A DNA stretch of 64,000 nt from a virus (Duplodnaviria > Caudoviricetes), in the IMG/VR virus record IMGVR_UViG_3300033068_001957, positions 32,001 through 96,000 of that record; one strand, given 5' to 3'. Positions 2,916-54,838 of this stretch are shown here, in pieces; within the stretch, counting starts at the first letter, position 1; every line of letters starts with the position of its first letter. Below the pieces are notes generated by a model that did not search any database, had not been told where the DNA came from, and was given only the letters and a program-made list of their open reading frames with translations. The translations under genes and the position numbers were made by a program.

Positions 2916-3093
2916 TAATTATAAGCGGAAAATAAATTGCGATTTGGTCCGTCTTCTAAATTTATCGTTAGTGTAAATCGCCTATCCATAGGGTTCTTTG
3001 CCAACTCATCATCAAAAGATAGGTCTATATGAAACATAACCATATCATCAGCCACGCCAGCGTCTTCTATTTGGTCCTTAATTTCTTTCCAAG

Positions 3094-3495
3094 TCATGGG
3101 CGCAAATCTCTAACCGATTCGTCCAACAAATATCTACACTCTTCATTCTTCCAATCAAAGATATGGCCAATCACTTCAACATCTTCGGCCAAAAAACTTT
3201 CGCCACCGACTTTTCCAATTTCTTCGGGCGTCTTAAAGAGACGATAACCCAAAGCTCTTGGGTTCCAACCTACGATTTTCTTTTGGCGGGTTGTATAAGA
3301 ATCAAAAGGATCTTCTGTATCCCATAAAACAACATCATTTTCCCAAATATTTTTACCTTCTTTATCTTGGACTCCAGTGAATTGCATAGGTTCTAAACCG
3401 TCTGCGCCGTCTAAAAGATAGCCATAATCTTCCTCGTTAAGGTATTCCATCATGTTAGAATGGAAGGAATAAGCTCTAAATTTATAACGACTCAT
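3094..3495 (-). CDS. YopX family protein
   Basis: YKFRAY..MQFTGVQDKEGKNIWENDVV..EVIGHIFD. Confidence 0.85.
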   Translation of the reverse strand: MSRYKFRAYSFHSNMMEYLNEEDYGYLLDGADGLEPMQFTGVQDKEGKNIWENDVVLWDTEDPFDSYTTRQKKIVGWNPRALGYRLFKTPEEIGKVGGESFLAEDVEVIGHIFDWKNEECRYLLDESVRDLRP

Positions 3496-4552
3496 ATTTC
3501 TTAAGGAATTTAGCTAGTTTATCGGCCTGAAATTTTTCGCGGTGCAAGTTAATTGTTTCTAGAATTTCAGATTTCGGCAGTATAGCACCATTCTTACTCC
3601 AGTCAACTATATTTTTGTTTTCTTTTTGCATATCGCCCAAGTCATTTAGCGTAGGAAGTTTAATTCTCAGCATTTCTACGGGGAAAACCGAAGATAATTT
3701 AATCATGTTTTTAATGGCGGCGATTTTGCCAGTATTTTGTTCCTTTGATGAATCATTATTAGTGGAAATAGTAATCATCGACGGATCAATGCTTAACAGA
3801 AATGCCAGCAGTTTCGCCGAACAGTCTAGGCCAAAGTTTACCAAGTGATTAAATATCTTGTTTTCACATAAGGCCATGCTATCGCCAATACTCTCCACTA
3901 GAATAACTTCTGGAGCATCGACAAAATACTCCTTACACTGGCTGATTGTATAGTAAGGAAAAACAAACGTATCCTTGCGGCCAATGTGTTTCCATTTTGG
4001 GGTGTTGGGTTTGTCTTCATGGTAAATGTGCCGTCCTGAGAAGCCAATGATTTGTTCGTGTTCGTCAAAGATCGGAAACGTCATACGCTGAAACATCTGA
4101 TCTTTGGTTGCGTAGCCCATCTTATACATCTTCTGAGTAGTGGCGGAAATCCCGCGTTTCTCGTAGAATGAGTAATTTGGCAGCAATCTTTCCAAACAGG
4201 CTTTGTCGTAAGTTTTGGGCATGAGGTATTTGGCTTTTGGGGTGGCGATATATTCTCGCCGTTCTGCGTTGATTAGGGATAGTATGTTTTGCCGATTCTG
4301 AGTCCCGAGAGTTTTTGCCACTAAATCATAAAGAGAAAATCCTTTTTTATCTTCGCCGAAATCAACTGTCCAGCCCGAGTTTTTCCATACTTTGAGGGCG
4401 TTAAAAGTATCGCCGCCTCTGTAAATGGCTCTCGTTCTAACGAAATCGCCGCAATCCTGAATGGGGTATCCAAGATTAGATAAGATTTCAACTACCTTAC
4501 CTGACTCATAATGTTGGAATTTTTTCGGCCCATCAGAAGGAGTCGGGTTCAT
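3482..4552 (-). CDS. DNA primase (Toprim)
   Basis: RMTFPIFD..IIGFSGR, PKWKH, ILVESIGDSMAL; adjacent to the helicase. Confidence 0.85.
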   Translation of the reverse strand: MNPTPSDGPKKFQHYESGKVVEILSNLGYPIQDCGDFVRTRAIYRGGDTFNALKVWKNSGWTVDFGEDKKGFSLYDLVAKTLGTQNRQNILSLINAERREYIATPKAKYLMPKTYDKACLERLLPNYSFYEKRGISATTQKMYKMGYATKDQMFQRMTFPIFDEHEQIIGFSGRHIYHEDKPNTPKWKHIGRKDTFVFPYYTISQCKEYFVDAPEVILVESIGDSMALCENKIFNHLVNFGLDCSAKLLAFLLSIDPSMITISTNNDSSKEQNTGKIAAIKNMIKLSSVFPVEMLRIKLPTLNDLGDMQKENKNIVDWSKNGAILPKSEILETINLHREKFQADKLAKFLKKYESL

Positions 4553-30968: not shown

Positions 30969-32066
30969 ATGGAAAAACTAATTTTAAACGCGCCGATTTC
31001 TAGTCTTTCGCTAGGCCAAGTCTCTTATAACATTATCAGAGAATGTTGGAAACGAAACATAGACCTTGCCTATTTTCCCATTGGAGAAGTTCAATTAGAT
31101 GCTTTTCAGCCGCCAAAAGAATTAGTTGCATATATTCAAGACGCCCTGAATAAAAGACTTTCTCATCTTGGCCGCGATGTTAAGACTCTAAAAATTTGGC
31201 ATATTCAATCACAGGAACCGAAAGACCCATTCCGAGTTCTTCTTACGCCCGATCAAACTTTATGCACGTTTCATGAGACAGATTTTTCGACCGAATTTGA
31301 AAAAACTTTGGTAAATTTAAACAGAAAGACCTTATTCTGCGGCAATTACTCAGAAAATATCTTTCTCGCTGCTGGATGCCCTAACGTAGGATCGTTTAAT
31401 GTAGGATGGGATGAAGATTTCAAGGTCGCAGGTAAAAAATATCTAGAAGGGCGAAAACATTTCTTATTGGTGGGAAAGCGTGAAGTCAGAAAAAACACTA
31501 GCCAAATTATCAAAACGTGGATAAAAAAATATGGCAATAACAAAGACTACGCTTTAACTTGCGTAATCAACAATCCATTCTTTAGTCCAGAAGACAACCA
31601 GAGACTCATTCAGGAAGACTTGGGAGGAAAACGCATTTGGAATCTGAATCTCCTACCTCACCTGAAAACTAACGACGAAATGAATGAGGTTTATAATTCT
31701 TGCGACATCGACTTGAGCGGCGCAAGTTTTTCTGAATCATATGGGATTCCAGCTTTTACATCATGCGGGCTAGGCAAAATATGTGTAGTAAATAATTTCG
31801 GCGGTCATAAAGCTTGGGCTACGGCAGAAAACAGTATTCTTATTGAACCAGATGGGATGCAAGATTGTTATGATGGCGTGTTCTTCAATAAGGGCGGGAA
31901 TTTTAGTCAGGGTCAATATTCCCATTATAGCGAAGATGCTCTTGTAGATGCGATGGAACGCGCCGAACAAAAAGTCGGCCAACCAAATACCGCAGGTTTG
32001 GCGCTTCAAAATACACATAGCTGGAAAAATTCTCTTGACCATATCTTGTCTCAAGTGTATAATTAA
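30969..32066 (+). CDS. GT4-like glycosyltransferase
   Basis: FLLVGKREVRKN, YNSCDI..SESYGIP. Confidence 0.8.
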   Translation: MEKLILNAPISSLSLGQVSYNIIRECWKRNIDLAYFPIGEVQLDAFQPPKELVAYIQDALNKRLSHLGRDVKTLKIWHIQSQEPKDPFRVLLTPDQTLCTFHETDFSTEFEKTLVNLNRKTLFCGNYSENIFLAAGCPNVGSFNVGWDEDFKVAGKKYLEGRKHFLLVGKREVRKNTSQIIKTWIKKYGNNKDYALTCVINNPFFSPEDNQRLIQEDLGGKRIWNLNLLPHLKTNDEMNEVYNSCDIDLSGASFSESYGIPAFTSCGLGKICVVNNFGGHKAWATAENSILIEPDGMQDCYDGVFFNKGGNFSQGQYSHYSEDALVDAMERAEQKVGQPNTAGLALQNTHSWKNSLDHILSQVYN

Positions 32067-36330: not shown

Positions 36331-36846
36331 ATGACTCTATCCTTCTGGAAACCTTCCCCCTTCGAAAAAGATGGCCAATATACTGGCGCAGCATTTTCAT
36401 TTAAACTAATGAAAACTCCAGACGGCCCAAAATTCATAATGTCAGGGGTCAAGCAAAAATCTTACGACCCAGTAAAGAAGCTTGGTTCTTTTTACAACAA
36501 CAAAGATCATCTAGAGCATAGCGTTTCTGTCAAATTTAATGAAATCGAACTTGGCAACCTAATCCATTCGATCAAAAATTACAAAGACTTTTCTGCCTTT
36601 CATAGTTTTAAGGACGATAAAACTACGATTACCTTCAAACCCTATACCAAAAAGCCGAAACAGGGGGAAGTTGAGGGCGTAAAGGCTTTTTCTCTTACCG
36701 TTAAGAAGAATGGAAGTTTACAGATTGGTCTTGGCATCGAACTTGGAGAAGCAGAAGCATTATTAGTTTTTGTCCAAACGGCGCTTATCGAGATGTTTTA
36801 TGCTAGTGGGCAACAGCCACAGAAAGAAGAACGTTCGGGAGAATAA
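36331..36846 (+). CDS. hypothetical protein (possible PC4/Whirly-like ssDNA binder)
   Basis: Repeated beta-strand + helix pattern; CGTTAGTATAAT upstream. Confidence 0.45.
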   Translation: MTLSFWKPSPFEKDGQYTGAAFSFKLMKTPDGPKFIMSGVKQKSYDPVKKLGSFYNNKDHLEHSVSVKFNEIELGNLIHSIKNYKDFSAFHSFKDDKTTITFKPYTKKPKQGEVEGVKAFSLTVKKNGSLQIGLGIELGEAEALLVFVQTALIEMFYASGQQPQKEERSGE

Positions 36847-36847
36847 T

Positions 36848-37579
36848 ATGCTCGTCTGCTATTTCGGGAAAAATAGTTTAAATAATTCTGGAATCTATAA
36901 AATATCTAATTCTATAGATGATAGAATATATATTGGATCGTCCAAAAGTTTTCGCGCCCGTTTTAAAAAGCATGAATTTGATTTGGCGGAAGGAAGGCAT
37001 CACTCTATCCATATGGAAAGGTTTTGCTCTAAATATTTCGAAGATGTCATTTTTTATTTTGAGATTTTAGAGATTACAGAAAAAGACCAACTCATAAATC
37101 GAGAACAATATTATTTAGATACCTTGCTACCATTTGGCGAAAAGGGCTTTAATATGAGAAAGAAGGCAATTTCTTCGGCTGGGACACAAAAGGTCAAAAG
37201 GTCATTTTATCAATACGATAAGGATGGAAATGAGATTTCTTTTTTAAATATAGAGGAAATGGCGTCTTCGACTGGACTAAATAAAAACACAATGAGAGGA
37301 GCCTTGACGGGGCAATTTAAAACGTGTGGAGGTTTCATTTTTTCCTATGATAAACTTTCAAAAGAAGAAGTAAATAATATTTTGGCAGACAAAAGAAAAA
37401 CGAGATACACTAGACCAAATCTAAATCGTAGAGTTACGGCAATTTCCCTTGAACACGGCAAACATGAGTATGAAACTGCATTGAAAGCATCCCAAGAGCT
37501 TGGCATATGTGATATTTCTATTAGAAAAGCTTGTAGGAAAGGCCATTATTATAAAGGCTATAAGTGGAGTTATTCTTAA
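36848..37579 (+). CDS. GIY-YIG homing endonuclease with NUMOD1 modules
   Basis: SGIYKISN..IYIGSS; YQYDKDG..; C-terminus GYKWSY. Confidence 0.88.
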   Translation: MLVCYFGKNSLNNSGIYKISNSIDDRIYIGSSKSFRARFKKHEFDLAEGRHHSIHMERFCSKYFEDVIFYFEILEITEKDQLINREQYYLDTLLPFGEKGFNMRKKAISSAGTQKVKRSFYQYDKDGNEISFLNIEEMASSTGLNKNTMRGALTGQFKTCGGFIFSYDKLSKEEVNNILADKRKTRYTRPNLNRRVTAISLEHGKHEYETALKASQELGICDISIRKACRKGHYYKGYKWSYS

Positions 37580-39528: not shown

Positions 39529-40683
39529 ATGAATTTAGCCCATGCTTATAGCAACTACCTCGGAGTCGTACCGACTGAACGGCCAATATTAAACGAACAA
39601 TTTTTTCCCCTCAAAGACGAAAAGTTCATTACGATTCACAATGATAGGAAATTAGAATCAAAATTCTTCGAGTATTTTCCAGAAGTTATTTCGCTACTAA
39701 AACCCATTCTTTCTCAACTTGGATATAAGATTTATCAAATCGGCGGGCCAAATGATCCAATTTTAGATGGGACGGATTCTCAGTTTTTGGGTCTATCATG
39801 GCCACAAAGCGTTTATATCCTTAAGCGCAGCAGTCTTCACATAGGTATTGATAGTGCTCCTGTACACATTTCGAGCGCATATGATGTGCCAACGATTATT
39901 TTATATAGTCACATATATAGCCAACAAGCTCGCCCGATTTGGGCCGACCCGAAAAAGACAATCATTCTAGAACCAGACTGGGGCGATAAAAAACCCTCCT
40001 ATTCCCCCGTCGAAAACCCAAAAATGATTCGCACAATCAAAGTCGAATCAATCGTCCAATCGGCATTCAAGCTTCTCGATATTGATGTAAAGCTGGACAT
40101 GAAAACCCTCCGTGTCGGTAATGATTACCACGAAGCGGTTATGGAAATTATACCAGACTTTTTCGCCGAAAATCCCGCGTTAAAGAATGGGCTTTTACAT
40201 TTTAGAATGGATTTAACCCACAATGAGCCATGTCTCTTTCATTGGTTGAAAAGCGGTTATCGGGCGAATATTATTACCAGCAAACCAATTGATGTTGCCG
40301 CGCTAAAACAATTCAAGTCGCAAATTCATCGCATTACTTTAATCGCCGAAAATACAGACTCTTACACGCTCGATTACGTAAAAAACGTAAAAAGTCTTGG
40401 CCTAGATGTTTTGATGATGGGGCCGAATAAAGAAACCCTTCCTTGGGTGCGCGAGAAGTTTTTCGATTATTCTGTTGAAAGTTTGGACTATCCAGAACGT
40501 TCTCTTGTTGACAAGATTCCGCCGTATGCTAAATTCTTCTCCAAGAAACAAGTCCATAGCAACGGCAAAATCTTTCCTAGCATCGCCCATTATAAGCAAA
40601 ATTTGTGTTTTGCAAAATCGAATAGGATTATAGATTCGCAAGAATTCTGGTTAGATATAGAATATTTTTATTTTTACCTATAA
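39529..40683 (+). CDS. GT9-like glycosyltransferase; last 29 codons apparently supplied by the tnpB cassette
   Basis: IYQIGG, LHIGIDSAPVHISSAYDVPTIILY. Confidence 0.8.
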   Translation: MNLAHAYSNYLGVVPTERPILNEQFFPLKDEKFITIHNDRKLESKFFEYFPEVISLLKPILSQLGYKIYQIGGPNDPILDGTDSQFLGLSWPQSVYILKRSSLHIGIDSAPVHISSAYDVPTIILYSHIYSQQARPIWADPKKTIILEPDWGDKKPSYSPVENPKMIRTIKVESIVQSAFKLLDIDVKLDMKTLRVGNDYHEAVMEIIPDFFAENPALKNGLLHFRMDLTHNEPCLFHWLKSGYRANIITSKPIDVAALKQFKSQIHRITLIAENTDSYTLDYVKNVKSLGLDVLMMGPNKETLPWVREKFFDYSVESLDYPERSLVDKIPPYAKFFSKKQVHSNGKIFPSIAHYKQNLCFAKSNRIIDSQEFWLDIEYFYFYL

Positions 40684-40725
40684 AGGGAGAATTTTAGTAA
40701 AAATAAGTAATTTTTCTAAAATCAA

Positions 40726-40731
40726 GTGTAA
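40726..40731 (+). promoter_or_regulatory. phage-specific GTGTAA promoter motif (representative copy, in front of tnpB)
   Basis: Same motif 8-30 nt before starts at 9709, 20904, 24557, 35712, 36274, 52550, 53722, and also at 57451. Confidence 0.65.
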
Positions 40732-40741
40732 TATACTATGA

Positions 40742-41908
40742 GTGACACATCGCGCATATAAATTCCGAATCTATCCGACTTCAGAACAGGAAGTTCTTTT
40801 ACGAAGGACTATTGGTAGCTGCCGCTATATTTATAATTGGGCGCTGAATATGAAAAGGGAGGAATGGGTTCAAAATAAAAAAAATCTATCTTATGCTAAA
40901 GTATGCAAATCCTTGACGGAAACGAAAAAGGTGCTGGATTATAATTGGCTTAATAATGTATCAAGTGTTTGCTTGCAGCAGTCATTGAGAAACTTAGATG
41001 TTGCATTTGTTAATTTCTTTAAAAAACGCGCTTCTTATCCAAGTTTTAAATGTCGTAAAAATGGCGGTTCTGCGCGCTTCCTTCAAAATGCATTTCGGAT
41101 TAATGGAGATAATTTATTTCTTGCAAAGATTGAATCTCCGATTAAAGTCTCTTGGACGCGAAAGTTAAATGGGAAATCTAACCAATGTGTTGTCTCTCAA
41201 AACGCTGCTGGCCAATGGTTCGCCTCATTTCTTTATGAAGAAGAGATTGAAAAATTAGCGCCGCTAGATAAAGATGTCGGTATTGACTTGGGGATCGAAA
41301 CGTTCGCGTCAACCTCAGACGGGCAAAAGTATGGACAGCCTAAGCGCATTCGTCGATTGAGAAAGAAGTTGGCGCGTTTGCAACGCCAGCATTCTCGCAA
41401 GATTAAGGGTTCAAAGAACCGTGAAAAGGCTCGCCTCAAGGTTGCCCGTTTGCACCAGCACATTTCAGATGTGCGCAAAGATTTTCTTCATAAGCTTTCC
41501 ACAAAACTCATTCGTGAAAACCAAACGATTGCGTTGGAGGATTTGGCCGTTAAAAACATGGTTAAGAATCGTAAACTTTCTCGCTGTATCAGCGAACAAG
41601 GCTGGCGAATATTCCGAAATATGTTAAAGTATAAGGCTGAGTGGTATGGGCGAGAATTGGTCATCATTGACCGATTCTACCCGAGCAGCAAGACGTGCTC
41701 TTGCTGCGGAAGAAAAACAAATCTTTCGCTTGACAAACGAAAGTGGACATGCGAATGTGGTGTTACGCATGACCGAGACATTAACGCCGCCAAGAATATT
41801 CTCGCCGCTGGACAAGCGGTGCCATTTGCCTGTGGAGCAGACACAAGACCATCGAAGAACTACGTTCTTCGGGGCAGTCCGCGACGAAGCAGGAAACCTA
41901 AAGCGTGA
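40742..41908 (+). CDS. tnpB: TnpB RNA-guided endonuclease, RuvC triad intact
   Basis: AYKFRIYPT, GIDLG (D), ALEDL (E), PSSKTCSCCG..CECG..HDRDINAAKNI (D). Confidence 0.95.
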   Translation: MTHRAYKFRIYPTSEQEVLLRRTIGSCRYIYNWALNMKREEWVQNKKNLSYAKVCKSLTETKKVLDYNWLNNVSSVCLQQSLRNLDVAFVNFFKKRASYPSFKCRKNGGSARFLQNAFRINGDNLFLAKIESPIKVSWTRKLNGKSNQCVVSQNAAGQWFASFLYEEEIEKLAPLDKDVGIDLGIETFASTSDGQKYGQPKRIRRLRKKLARLQRQHSRKIKGSKNREKARLKVARLHQHISDVRKDFLHKLSTKLIRENQTIALEDLAVKNMVKNRKLSRCISEQGWRIFRNMLKYKAEWYGRELVIIDRFYPSSKTCSCCGRKTNLSLDKRKWTCECGVTHDRDINAAKNILAAGQAVPFACGADTRPSKNYVLRGSPRRSRKPKA

Positions 41909-41968
41909 GCTAAAGAATCTTTGTCATTCGTGGCAAAGAGAATGTCAAAAGCAAAACATTCCATTCTC
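41790..41968 (+). ncRNA. predicted omegaRNA (reRNA) scaffold overlapping the tnpB 3' end, plus ~20-nt guide AAGCAAAACATTCCATTCTC (41949-41968); 5' boundary approximate
   Basis: Right-end hairpin CTTTGTCA-TTCG-TGGCAAAG followed by AGAATGTCAA, the typical IS605 right-end layout. Confidence 0.7.
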
Positions 41969-42038
41969 GAAAGCCAATAGAATAATTGATAGTGATGATT
42001 TTTGGCTTGATATTGAGTATTATTACTTCTATCTTTAA
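41949..42038 (+). pseudogene. displaced original 3' end (29 codons + TAA) of the GT9-like gene
   Basis: KQNIPFSKANRIIDSDDFWLDIEYYYFYL* vs KQNLCFAKSNRIIDSQEFWLDIEYFYFYL* at 40594-40683. Confidence 0.85.
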
Positions 42039-42041
42039 TTT

Positions 42042-42884
42042 ATGACCGATACGACATCTGCCACTCCCGAGCAAGAAACAACCGCATTTCCAATTAGCAA
42101 TCCAAAATACAAAGATGGCCCAGAAAAACTTCGCCGTAATGAATATGGGTTGTTTGAGAATGTTGATTACAAATATACTCCAGATGGATTCGTTGACTGG
42201 AAATCCATGATCAATCCAAAGTTCCTCTACCCCAACAAGGCGTGGTTTGAGCGAAACAATAAACCAATCCCAGATTCCATTGATGGCCTACAGGATCATC
42301 AAATCATTTGCAAACTTGGCGGGTATAAAGAATTGGCGCGGCTTCGCGGGTTTTCCAACGTAGAATATAAGCTGGAATACCTTGAAAACGGCGTATCATG
42401 TATTTGCACTATTACATGGATTCCGAACTACGAAACAGCGGTTCATTCCGAAAACAAATATTCGTTTGCTGACACTGTAACATTTTCATCTATTGCTAAT
42501 TCTACCTCAGAGAATTGCGGCGATTCTTCGTCTTCGTTCTCCATGGCGATCTTTAAGGAAACGCAAGCCGAAAATCGTTCGTTTGTTCGCTGTGTTCGCA
42601 ATTTCTTAAACGTCAATGTCGTAGGAGAAGATGAAATTAGCAAAGGCGAAGATTCTACGGCAAAAGCCAATCAGGCTCAAACAAGCGGCCCAGACGCCCT
42701 GAATCCGCGCAAAAATCTAGAATCTCAAGCCCTTAAGAGAGGATACAAGACATTGGCCGATCTAAAAGCCTTCTTGAAGACAAAAAATTATACACCCAAA
42801 GAAAAAACCCCGACCCCATGGGCAAGTTATGACGACATTCCAGTTAGCGAATGCTGGAAAATTAGCCAATTGATTAACGAATAG
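42042..42884 (+). CDS. conserved phage protein (possible ssDNA-annealing protein)
   Basis: Long ORF; AENRSFVRCVRNFL resembles the AExRAxxRA motif of annealing proteins. Confidence 0.45.
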   Translation: MTDTTSATPEQETTAFPISNPKYKDGPEKLRRNEYGLFENVDYKYTPDGFVDWKSMINPKFLYPNKAWFERNNKPIPDSIDGLQDHQIICKLGGYKELARLRGFSNVEYKLEYLENGVSCICTITWIPNYETAVHSENKYSFADTVTFSSIANSTSENCGDSSSSFSMAIFKETQAENRSFVRCVRNFLNVNVVGEDEISKGEDSTAKANQAQTSGPDALNPRKNLESQALKRGYKTLADLKAFLKTKNYTPKEKTPTPWASYDDIPVSECWKISQLINE

Positions 42885-53047: not shown

Positions 53048-53216
53048 ACCAGAATTGAGAAATTTGCCCATGTCGGCGTATAGTCTTTTGGACAAGCTCG
53101 GGATGCTATATGAGTTATATCCAGAAGCCACGGGTGAATGGGACATCGACTGTCCTGCGCCGAGAATTTCAGCTAAAGAAAAAATCCTAAATATTATAAA
53201 TGGCTTACCAAAATAA
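53040..53216 (+). CDS. 58-aa hypothetical protein (not in ORF track)
   Basis: MSKPELRN..GMLYELYPEATGEW..; overlaps both neighbours. Confidence 0.55.
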   Translation: MSKPELRNLPMSAYSLLDKLGMLYELYPEATGEWDIDCPAPRISAKEKILNIINGLPK

Positions 53217-53712
53217 ACACGATGTCTCAGGAGTTAATTCTAGAGATGGGAATAATGCCGAGGAACTTTTTCGACAACTCGCTGAAAACCAAGGATATAC
53301 CGTTACCGACGCTACAAAAACAGAGCAATTTGCCCACATTGATTTCTGGCTAGAAAAAGATGGGAATAGATGGAGCTTTGACTGCAAAGCAAGAAAGAAG
53401 ATTCGGCGAGAAGATAAGGATTTTTCTGATGAGTTCTGTTGGTTGGAATTCGTGTCAGTTAATAATTCGGCTGGCTGGTTAAGAGGGTTAGCTCGATATA
53501 TCGTTTTCGAAAGGGAGAATGATTTTCTCATTGTTGATAGAAAACTTTTGCTAGAATTGGCCGAAAAGATCGTAGATTTTGATACAATTGTGGATCGTCC
53601 GCATAAAGCATTGCGCAAAATTTATCGCCGCTTCAAGAGAAAAGATCAAATTAGTTACGTAGAGTTCGCAGAAATAGAAAAGCTAGAGCATAAGATTTGG
53701 AAAAAATTCTAG
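53200..53712 (+). CDS. PD-(D/E)XK nuclease-like protein; last ~24 codons duplicated beyond the following endonuclease
   Basis: GNNAEELF, HIDFW, FDCKARK, WLEF, GWLRG. Confidence 0.7.
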   Translation: MAYQNKHDVSGVNSRDGNNAEELFRQLAENQGYTVTDATKTEQFAHIDFWLEKDGNRWSFDCKARKKIRREDKDFSDEFCWLEFVSVNNSAGWLRGLARYIVFERENDFLIVDRKLLLELAEKIVDFDTIVDRPHKALRKIYRRFKRKDQISYVEFAEIEKLEHKIWKKF

Positions 53713-53736
53713 AGCTATTTGGTGTAATTCTCTTAT

Positions 53737-54735
53737 ATGGAAAATATACATCGGTGCATACCAAATGGTTTTTATGTCTATATTTTATTAGATCCAAGGT
53801 ATGAAGGCTTATTTAAATACGGAGAAGATTTAGAATTTTGCTTTCGCCCCTATTACGTAGGCAAGGGTGTAGGCAGAAGATATTTAAGACATTTTCATGA
53901 GTCTGAGTTTAAGAGGACGTACAATCAGCATAAAAATAATATTACGAAAAAGATAATGTTAGAAGGCTATGATCCTATTGATTTTGTTGTTTTCTTTAGG
54001 GATGGAATGGAAGAGAGTAGTGCTTTAGAATTAGAAAAGGAGATTATTTCTAAAATTGGTTGTACGTCATTAAAAAATGGTCCTCTTTCCAATAAAACTT
54101 CTGGGGGAGAAAGCCCAGGCTCATTTTTGAGAGGGCTTACATGGGAGCAAAGATATGGCGAAGATAAGGCGAAAGAGATGAAGATTAAAGCATCTAAGAT
54201 ACAAAAAACAATAAAAAAACCAGATCAAAGCGGCGAAAAAAACGCTTTCTTTGGGAAAAAACATTCAGAAGAAACAAAATTAAAATTAAGAAATTGCTTT
54301 TTGAAGCCTATTGTCAGGATAAGTGAATTTTTGGATATAAAAGAATATTCATCTCCCTGTGTTGCCGCCGAAGAAATGAAAAATTGTTTATCGACTTCAA
54401 TCAGTCACTCAGCGACTCAAACATCCAAAGGGATTCATTGCACGTCAGCTAATTTTGTATGGATATATAAAAAAGCTTTTGAGAATTTTTCTCAAGAAGA
54501 ATTAAAGGAATTTGTGAAAAGATCTTTTTTGCGTAAAAATCACGATAAAAAGAAGATTTGTCAATTAGACAGGAATACGAAAAAAGTAATCAAGGTTTGG
54601 GAGTCTATTTCGGATGCTGCTGAAAATATTTTTGGGAGTAGAAAAAGAACGGGAGATATTTCTGCCGCAATTACGCATGACCGACAATGCATGGGTTTCA
54701 GGTGGGAGAACGCGACAGCGGATGACGTTCCATAA
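53737..54735 (+). CDS. GIY-YIG-like homing endonuclease with NUMOD3 and NUMOD1 modules
   Basis: YVYILLDPR..YYVGKG..R; NAFFGKKHSEETK; WESISDAA..GFRW; GTGTAA promoter at 53722. Confidence 0.85.
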   Translation: MENIHRCIPNGFYVYILLDPRYEGLFKYGEDLEFCFRPYYVGKGVGRRYLRHFHESEFKRTYNQHKNNITKKIMLEGYDPIDFVVFFRDGMEESSALELEKEIISKIGCTSLKNGPLSNKTSGGESPGSFLRGLTWEQRYGEDKAKEMKIKASKIQKTIKKPDQSGEKNAFFGKKHSEETKLKLRNCFLKPIVRISEFLDIKEYSSPCVAAEEMKNCLSTSISHSATQTSKGIHCTSANFVWIYKKAFENFSQEELKEFVKRSFLRKNHDKKKICQLDRNTKKVIKVWESISDAAENIFGSRKRTGDISAAITHDRQCMGFRWENATADDVP

Positions 54736-54742
54736 AAAACAA

Positions 54743-54838
54743 AGAAAAGACTTGCTTTCTATTGTTGAAACGGCTAAAGTGAGGGAAATAGCACAAAAAA
54801 TATGGCCCAAACACAACGCCCCTATCACGTCCTCCTAG
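54743..54838 (+). pseudogene. displaced paralogous 3' end of the 53200-53712 gene
   Basis: RKDLLSIVETAKVREIAQKIWPK vs RKDQISYVEFAEIEKLEHKIWKK (11/23 identical, ungapped). Confidence 0.65.

Follow-up and report, generated by a model that had tools for sequence, protein, structure and literature searches.

Many tnpB genes occur without a transposase, and what keeps them in genomes, those of phages included, is an open question. It is raised in a concrete form by a locus in a virus of the class Caudoviricetes, IMG/VR record IMGVR_UViG_3300033068_001957 (160,188 bp, estimated complete), of which a window of 64,000 nucleotides (nt; positions 32,001 to 96,000 of the record) was analyzed. Within this window a tnpB gene lies inside a GT9-like glycosyltransferase (GT) gene, with one version of the end of the GT gene in front of it and a second version behind it. 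What is such an arrangement for? We lean towards the answer that it is a transposase-independent tnpB-omegaRNA homing cassette, which carries a replacement tail for the gene in which it resides; the cutting, the immunity of the carrier, the homing and the need of the gene for its tail are what we infer from the sequence.

The locus is built as follows, in positions of the window and with TAM standing for target-adjacent motif, ORF for open reading frame and IS for insertion sequence:

39529..40593, plus strand: body of the GT9-like glycosyltransferase gene, through its His-Tyr codons
40590..40593, plus strand: presumed TAM, TTAT, directly 5' of the inserted block
40594..40683, plus strand: replacement tail of 29 codons and a stop, in frame with the gene body; the copy now used
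40684..40741, plus strand: remnant of the IS left end, without the left hairpin arm and the conserved core; GTGTAA at 40726-40731
40742..41908, plus strand: tnpB, 388 codons with a GTG start; RuvC motifs intact by Pfam, PDB and motif evidence
41790..41948, plus strand: omegaRNA scaffold and IS right end; terminal hairpin at 41918-41939, TCAA at 41945-41948
41949..41968, plus strand: presumed guide segment, formed by 16-20 nt at the start of the native tail; it adjoins the right end, as is the rule in this family (PMC8612924)
41949..42038, plus strand: native gene tail, displaced and unjoined from the gene; closer to the tails of relatives
42042..42884, plus strand: next phage gene (280 residues), which would be the right homology arm; its homologues follow the GT gene in the related contigs L029, L052 and L054

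The inserted block (40594-41948) is 1355 nt long and starts directly 3' of TTAT. Its parts are, in this order, the in-frame 90-nt tail, a left end without hairpin, an intact tnpB and the omegaRNA/right end region closing in TCAA. The tail at its start and the tail behind it agree in 60 of 90 nt and in 22 of 29 residues plus the stop codon, and 14 of the 22 shared residues are written with different codons. A six-frame comparison of the tnpB flanks recovers this pair with E = 6.5e-13, and the sequence outside of it is unrelated (14/60 and 19/60 nt). With the upstream tail as its end, the ORF at 39529-40683 encodes 384 residues, the same length as in its homologues (384-385 residues), and gives a weak Glyco_transf_9 match in Pfam. 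A preliminary description of this DNA had already reported the tails, the tnpB gene and the right end, and all of its counts and coordinates proved to be correct on recomputation. tnpB is the sole gene of the block, and no protein-only homing endonuclease of the LAGLIDADG, GIY-YIG or HNH type is found there.

Which of the two tails belongs to the gene can be read from its relatives. The GT protein has 72 homologues in the protein collection used, and all of the 12 closest ones (72-87% identical) end like the downstream tail. The closest relative (P0002, 86% identical) shares 28/29 residues with the downstream tail versus 21/29 with the upstream one, and the LCFAKS motif of the upstream tail occurs in none of the 72. 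The relatives in IMG/VR are only 29-44% identical and too distant to tell the native tail; it was the protein collection that gave the closer ones. In the GenBank phage collection a DNA search with the locus gave only weak tnpB matches, and a protein search for the GT gene gave none. At the DNA level, eight distinct natural tails could be compared, seven of which match the downstream copy at 72-81/90 nt versus 53-59/90 for the upstream copy. The eighth, from contig L052, resembles both alike (68/90 and 67/90). In close and distant relatives the tail abuts the next gene, as does the downstream copy here. The possibility that the upstream tail is the ancestral one, which would have spoken against the initial proposal, was looked at in these relatives, and it is the downstream tail that is native. 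None of the homologues compared possesses two tails.

Moreover, cassette-free alleles exist that join 40593 exactly to 41949. Over the 630 nt that precede the junction, contig L056 is 95.4% identical to the window; it then shows TTAT and continues with an uninterrupted native-type tail (81/90), which makes it, by this alignment, a near-isogenic cassette-free allele. The GT gene is a mosaic: in L056 an identity of 95% is found over the last 630 nt, and one of only 67% over the first part. Logan contigs of the sequencing runs X1, X2 and X4 skip exactly the 1355 nt; X1 holds the sequence of the window as well, with a depth of 59 for the skipping contig versus about 150 for the carrier. Because alleles with this join exist, the block is to be regarded as an insertion, the downstream tail as ancestral, and the upstream tail as having arrived with the insertion or after it. 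The expectation that joining 40593 to 41949 restores the gene is borne out by the same alleles.

Two side observations concern the displaced native tail. Its frame is open for 130 codons back into tnpB (41646-42038, +1 frame), across the whole omegaRNA region, which could be due to chance or could be a means of keeping translation reaching the next gene. The start of that gene at 42042 lies 3 nt after the native-tail stop and has no obvious ribosome-binding site.

The nuclease itself appears to be intact. TnpB matches HTH_OrfB_IS605, OrfB_IS605 and the Cas12f1-like TNB zinc ribbon in Pfam (E = 1e-31, 1.5e-26 and 1.7e-19), and the solved ISDra2 TnpB structures in the PDB with E = 6e-69. The motifs GIDLG, ALEDL and HDRD, at residues 180-186, 264-268 and 343-350, align with the solved homologue, and at the level of motifs the D-E-D triad is intact, as had been claimed. 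With its full length, its motifs and its zinc ribbon, the protein does not resemble the nuclease-dead TldR type. The comparison with the related tnpB of L031 yields a proportion of nonsynonymous differences (pN) of 0.15 and of synonymous differences (pS) of 0.62; by these comparisons TnpB is intact and under purifying selection.

The same genome carries two further tnpB copies, c2 and c3, which are 71% and 53% identical in protein to the copy studied here (c1):

95988-97142 of the genome (past the end of the window): c2, locus L024
156429-157544 of the genome: c3, locus L025

The right end of c1 closes in TCAA at the same point at which five related elements close in TGTCAA (c3, L031/L033, L034, L035 and L036), and that of c2 likewise closes in TCAA. 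The proposed IS605-type right end is therefore in register with its relatives. The consensus fold of seven elements has 14 covarying pairs, the changes in the terminal stem of c1 are fully compensated, and the fold of the omegaRNA region has a z-score of -2.96. Rfam yielded matches to RAGATH-18 and HgcC that are weak and below the gathering scores. An Rfam scan of 40400-42300 at E up to 1 found no intron family, in particular no group I intron, which agrees with the earlier statement that no intron is involved.

TnpB takes the flank of its right end as guide and cuts TAM-adjacent matches (PMC8612924). The presumed guide of c1 starts at 41949, directly after the right end, and is read from the displaced native tail. 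Among eight independent related elements the TAM is TTAT in five, and TCAT, TTAC and CTAC in one each, and this comparison supports the proposed TAM of about TTAT. For the first 16 nt of the guide, its own site is the sole match with three or fewer mismatches among the genome matches listed, and this site is preceded by TCAA, not by a TAM. The upstream tail agrees with the presumed 20-nt guide in only 12/20 positions, with mismatches at 9, 10, 12-15, 18 and 19, six of them within the first 16; the earlier count, with the first mismatch at position 9, is confirmed. In the contigs L054 and L055 the cassette-free allele has four extra changes in the guide stretch (positions 9, 12, 14 and 15), including Pro to Gln, and may be naturally resistant.

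These features suggest the following scenario. The ribonucleoprotein would cut the cassette-free alleles of co-infecting relatives, in which a TTAT-type TAM is followed by the start of the native tail, and the break would be mended by recombination with the carrier genome, whereby the replacement tail together with tnpB would be copied into the cut allele. Homology on the left would be provided by the gene body, and on the right by the native tail plus the next gene. The in-frame tail of the carrier would be spared from cutting by its guide mismatches (6/16 and 8/20). The substitute tail would keep the gene whole, and the displaced native tail would sit where the guide is read. Because the tail motif (FW.D.E, then aromatic residues) is kept in homologues down to about 40% identity, a truncated gene is probably defective and the loss of the tail costly. 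It is known that TnpB cutting biases the inheritance of its element (Meers et al., 10.1101/2023.03.14.532601), and an IS has been shown to spread in a population of plasmids by means of TnpB, TnpA being absent (PMC11870625). Co-infecting phages have been proposed as targets of homing (PMC13565253).

Where, then, does the replacement tail come from? It had been described as a recoded copy of the gene's own tail. This had to be abandoned, as its 3' half belongs to the haplotype of L052, a contig of another metagenome that has no cassette. Over the last 45 nt the replacement tail agrees with L052 at 39/45, with the own native tail at 32/45 and with the other relatives at 28-29/45, and therefore it is at least partly foreign. 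The comparison indicates that two haplotypes of the 3' end of the gene circulate and that the replacement tail bears the other one. According to a hand count of the last 20 codons, ten differ from L052, nine of them synonymously and one by Q/P, a pattern that corresponds to ordinary divergence between orthologues. Degenerate pattern scans of IMG/VR with the upstream-tail peptide were empty, and one metagenome scan led to a single contig, again L052.

The first 33 nt of the replacement tail are of a different kind. There, natural tails agree with each other at 23-33/33, and the replacement tail agrees with them at 16-21/33. It contains 14 private bases that occur in no natural tail, ten of them in nt 1-33 and seven in nt 10-19; for the clustering in nt 1-33, Fisher p is 0.0056, with boundaries picked after looking. 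The protein is changed at four of the first ten codons, including a Pro that is kept in nearly all homologues with at least 60% identity, and the tail retains every conserved residue of the family tail. The same changes give rise to a hairpin of 7 bp (40596-40613), two bases behind the TAM, which has no counterpart in any natural tail (z = -2.1, weak). We prefer to interpret the divergence of these 33 nt, with which the guide would pair, as a probable escape from the guide. The limits of the patch coincide exactly with the TAM and the stop codon, which points to selection on function without revealing the route. An origin of the unique 5' part from left-end sequence was rejected, since the similarity is at chance level (9/27, hand count on the alignment). 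The use of an upstream TTAT by TnpA as an alternative left cleavage site was rejected as well, since the left hairpin needed for it is absent.

The left end is the part in which c1 departs from its family. As judged from an alignment of c1, c2, c3 and relatives from other phage contigs (71-82% identical in protein), the family left end consists of the TAM, 6-9 variable nt, a conserved core and then a hairpin. In c1, homology to six relatives starts only at about the stop codon of the replacement tail, and the core and the left hairpin arm are gone. A Y1 transposase TnpA (PF01797) was not found in the 160-kb record, in a search in which the positive controls matched; a host-encoded TnpA is possible. 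The absence of tnpA that had been claimed thus extends to the whole genome. Because no Y1 transposase was found in the genome and the core and the left hairpin arm are missing, a TnpA-type peel-and-paste movement of c1 is unlikely.

The left-end remnant contains GTGTAA, which the preliminary description had called a phage promoter. It is indeed a real gene-start motif, as 23 of its 58 occurrences in the genome precede a long same-strand ORF, at a distance of 4-30 nt from its start, versus a mean of 5% over 90 hexamer permutations, among which GTGTAA ranks 1 of 90. We regard GTGTAA as a possible promoter and as a candidate phage expression signal carried by the element family. All related elements aligned from other phage contigs have kept it in their left ends, and for this reason the tnpB element family appears to be adapted to this phage group.

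c2 and c3 have each kept the left-end hairpin entire, and neither shows a duplication of its flanks. c2 seems to provide its neighbouring gene with a stop codon from its right end. On either side of c3 there is an ORF on the opposite strand; the two ORFs resemble halves of one gene and show an HNH-like motif by eye; their assignment as halves of an HNH gene was dropped, since Pfam gave no confirmation. The tnpB of L064-L067 (2501-3667; 80% identical) has a GTG start and no left-end hairpin, and no duplicated flank was detected; it occupies a single, constant locus in at least 10 contigs, which stem from several samples. At L039 (tnpB at 3001-4083; 42% identical), deaminase-like ORFs are present on both flanks, 28% identical to each other over 103 residues. 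They may simply be paralogues, or they may extend the idea of a replacement to an entire gene.

Several observations weigh against a homing cassette. The search for an empty allele with TTAT directly followed by the guide did yield cassette-free alleles, but none of those sampled matches TAM and guide perfectly, the best being L056 with TTAT and 18/20. All sampled empty alleles have A instead of G at guide position 3, and most have CTAC (as in L052 and L028) or TTAC in place of TTAT. No other sampled contig contains the cassette, and the nearest TnpB proteins (80-83% identical) are encoded at other loci. The survey for duplicated tails at other tnpB genes, which had been suggested as a check, covered 28 loci of the family and revealed no flank duplication apart from the paralogue pair of L039, so that the arrangement could be a one-off. 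It is also possible that c1 is a dying element, to judge from its decayed left end and its GTG start. The cluster of private bases could also stem from an unsampled third haplotype or from selection for the hairpin at 40596-40613. Finally, the model does not account for the first joining of tail and element.

Some of these points would fit a stranded insertion that was compensated afterwards, the main rival explanation, which we consider rather unlikely. TnpA acting in trans would have inserted the element at TTAT, the tail would have been captured later from a co-infecting relative, and the left end would have decayed. TnpB would then have no present part in the spread of the block, and the layout would be a survivor of selection on the phage and not an adaptation of the element. 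This would account for the missing left-end hairpin, for the single carrier, and for the 3' half of the replacement tail being a natural haplotype of another lineage. It would also agree with c2 and c3, which are ordinary insertions in the same genome with whole left ends and without duplicated flanks, and with the character of the GT locus, which is a hot spot for nucleases and recombination. A GIY-YIG/NUMOD1 gene (window 36770-37579) lies two genes upstream of the GT gene; relatives (L028, L053) have a GIY-YIG or LAGLIDADG gene at about this position, and there is variation in which genes follow the GT gene. However, TnpB and the omegaRNA fold are intact, with compensated stem changes. The native remnant has not decayed either (28/29 residues shared with P0002), so that the event is recent or the remnant is maintained. 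The exact extent of the patch from TAM to stop codon and the position of the private changes within the guide-matching stretch likewise speak against a stranded insertion. Moreover, if TnpB is active, this guide would lead it to cut matching empty alleles even without selection for doing so.

It is also conceivable, but quite improbable, that TnpB serves as a weapon or regulator without homing, which cuts or binds the GT alleles of relatives or another target and is only inherited vertically. The intact nuclease and guide would fit this reading, and so would the divergence of the sampled relatives, which is too great for gene conversion to be easy beyond the 630-nt block; homing endonucleases of phages are known to kill competitors (PMC13565253, section 3.2). 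On the other hand, phages like L056 offer long and close homology arms, so that repair from the carrier would be expected after a cut, and another target is not apparent, the own site being the only one with three or fewer mismatches to the first 16 guide nt among the matches listed.

The wording of the preliminary description, an in-place tandem duplication of the own tail with subsequent recoding, is more improbable still. It can point to codon 1, which is AAG in both tails and AAA in all sampled relatives; the first eight bases of the replacement tail may, however, come from the recipient or have been homogenised. The last 45 nt are closer to L052 than to the own native tail (39/45 versus 32/45), no relative shows two tails, and the absence of decay in the native remnant leaves no time for 30 substitutions in place. 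An assembly chimera that joins two strains across a tnpB repeat, for which one could cite the metagenomic origin, the co-occurring related strain and the three tnpB copies of the genome, is hardly credible, since Logan contigs of X1, which were assembled separately from the IMG/VR record though possibly out of one sample, contain both junctions in identical form (40545-41326 and 41867-42338; depth 161 and 141) and since tnpB copies only 71% and 53% identical in protein are too different to be merged.

We therefore keep to a homing cassette as the favoured reading, and it remains to compare it with known systems. Its layout has a precedent among protein homing endonucleases, namely the gene hybrids formed by mobile open reading frames (mORFs) in fungal mitochondria. 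These affect atp6 of Allomyces macrogynus (Paquin et al. 1994, as cited in PMC3630166) and atp6, atp9, cox2 and nad3 of Glomus (Beaudet et al. 2013, PMC3630166). In both cases, there and here, a nuclease gene in the 3' part of a conserved gene is accompanied by an in-frame inserted C-terminus of foreign origin, and the native C-terminus is found just downstream. The identity to relatives is 91-98% for the native and 64-81% for the inserted C-terminus in Glomus (PMC3630166), and 80-90% versus 59-66% here. Unlike the mORFs, which encode protein-only nucleases of the LAGLIDADG or GIY-YIG type in an organelle, the cassette consists of TnpB and omegaRNA in a phage, and the displaced native end sets the specificity. 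The fungal mitochondrial gene hybrid is the closest precedent, and the cassette would be its RNA-guided counterpart.

With IS200/IS605 TnpB elements such as ISDra2, among which it would fall with the tnpB-only IS1341 type, the cassette shares the domain set, the RuvC motifs, the right-end hairpin with TCAA, the guide in the flank, the 5' TAM and a guide that matches the empty site. It differs from them in that no tnpA is present in the genome, the left hairpin is lost, and the element lies inside a gene and carries coding sequence that repairs this gene. In addition, homing would take place between co-infecting genomes and not as restoration after excision. IStrons, which combine a group I intron with an IS605/IS607 tnpB (PMC10690162), also place a tnpB element in a gene without destroying its function. 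However, IStrons depend on RNA splicing for this, whereas here a substitute tail makes the gene whole in the DNA itself, and no intron was detected. In the case of the free-standing homing endonucleases SegF, SegG and MobE of T-even phages, which exemplify intronless homing (PMC13565253, section 3.2; PMC10448857), a phage nuclease cuts the allele of a co-infecting phage and is copied in with flanking markers, and the own allele is protected by sequence differences, as is proposed here. These enzymes recognize DNA as proteins and lie between genes, whereas recognition by a guide RNA inside a gene is proposed for the cassette. A literature search found no paper describing the carried-tail layout for TnpB. 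Synthetic home-and-rescue and cleave-and-rescue drives in insects combine a guided nuclease against a needed gene with a linked, cleavage-resistant rescue copy of this gene. Since they are engineered Cas9 systems in diploid animals, the likeness to the cassette is an analogy only.

A second locus of the window deserves mention in this context. At 53200-54838, the in-frame tail of a 170-residue gene (end at 53712) is followed by a GIY-YIG-like gene (53737-54735), and this in turn by an orphan tail (54743-54838) that agrees with the in-frame tail in 11/21 residues. The homologues of the 170-residue gene hold both types of tails, the closest relatives the in-frame type and the more distant ones the orphan type. 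This locus may be a protein-only version of the same layout.

Taken further, and more tentatively than for the locus itself, we suggest that an undescribed class of selfish elements in phages might exist. These would be transposase-independent TnpB-omegaRNA cassettes that home into coding sequence between co-infecting phages and bring along a cleavage-immune replacement for the end of the gene. The displaced end would become the guide, so that the element is re-armed automatically, and the elements would be adapted to their phages; protein-only nucleases in the same genome may do likewise.

To the question of what keeps tnpB genes without a transposase in genomes, this locus gives a concrete and testable answer, since guide and TAM can be read from the sequence, and with them a predicted target, an allele predicted to be immune and, in L056, a near-isogenic empty allele. 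If the answer is true, RNA-guided nucleases can act as free-standing homing elements in essential coding sequence by means of a rescue fragment. Among natural systems this logic was previously known for protein homing endonucleases alone; apart from these, it was familiar from engineered drives. Mosaic gene ends and local hot spots of recombination in phage genomes would then find an explanation as well.

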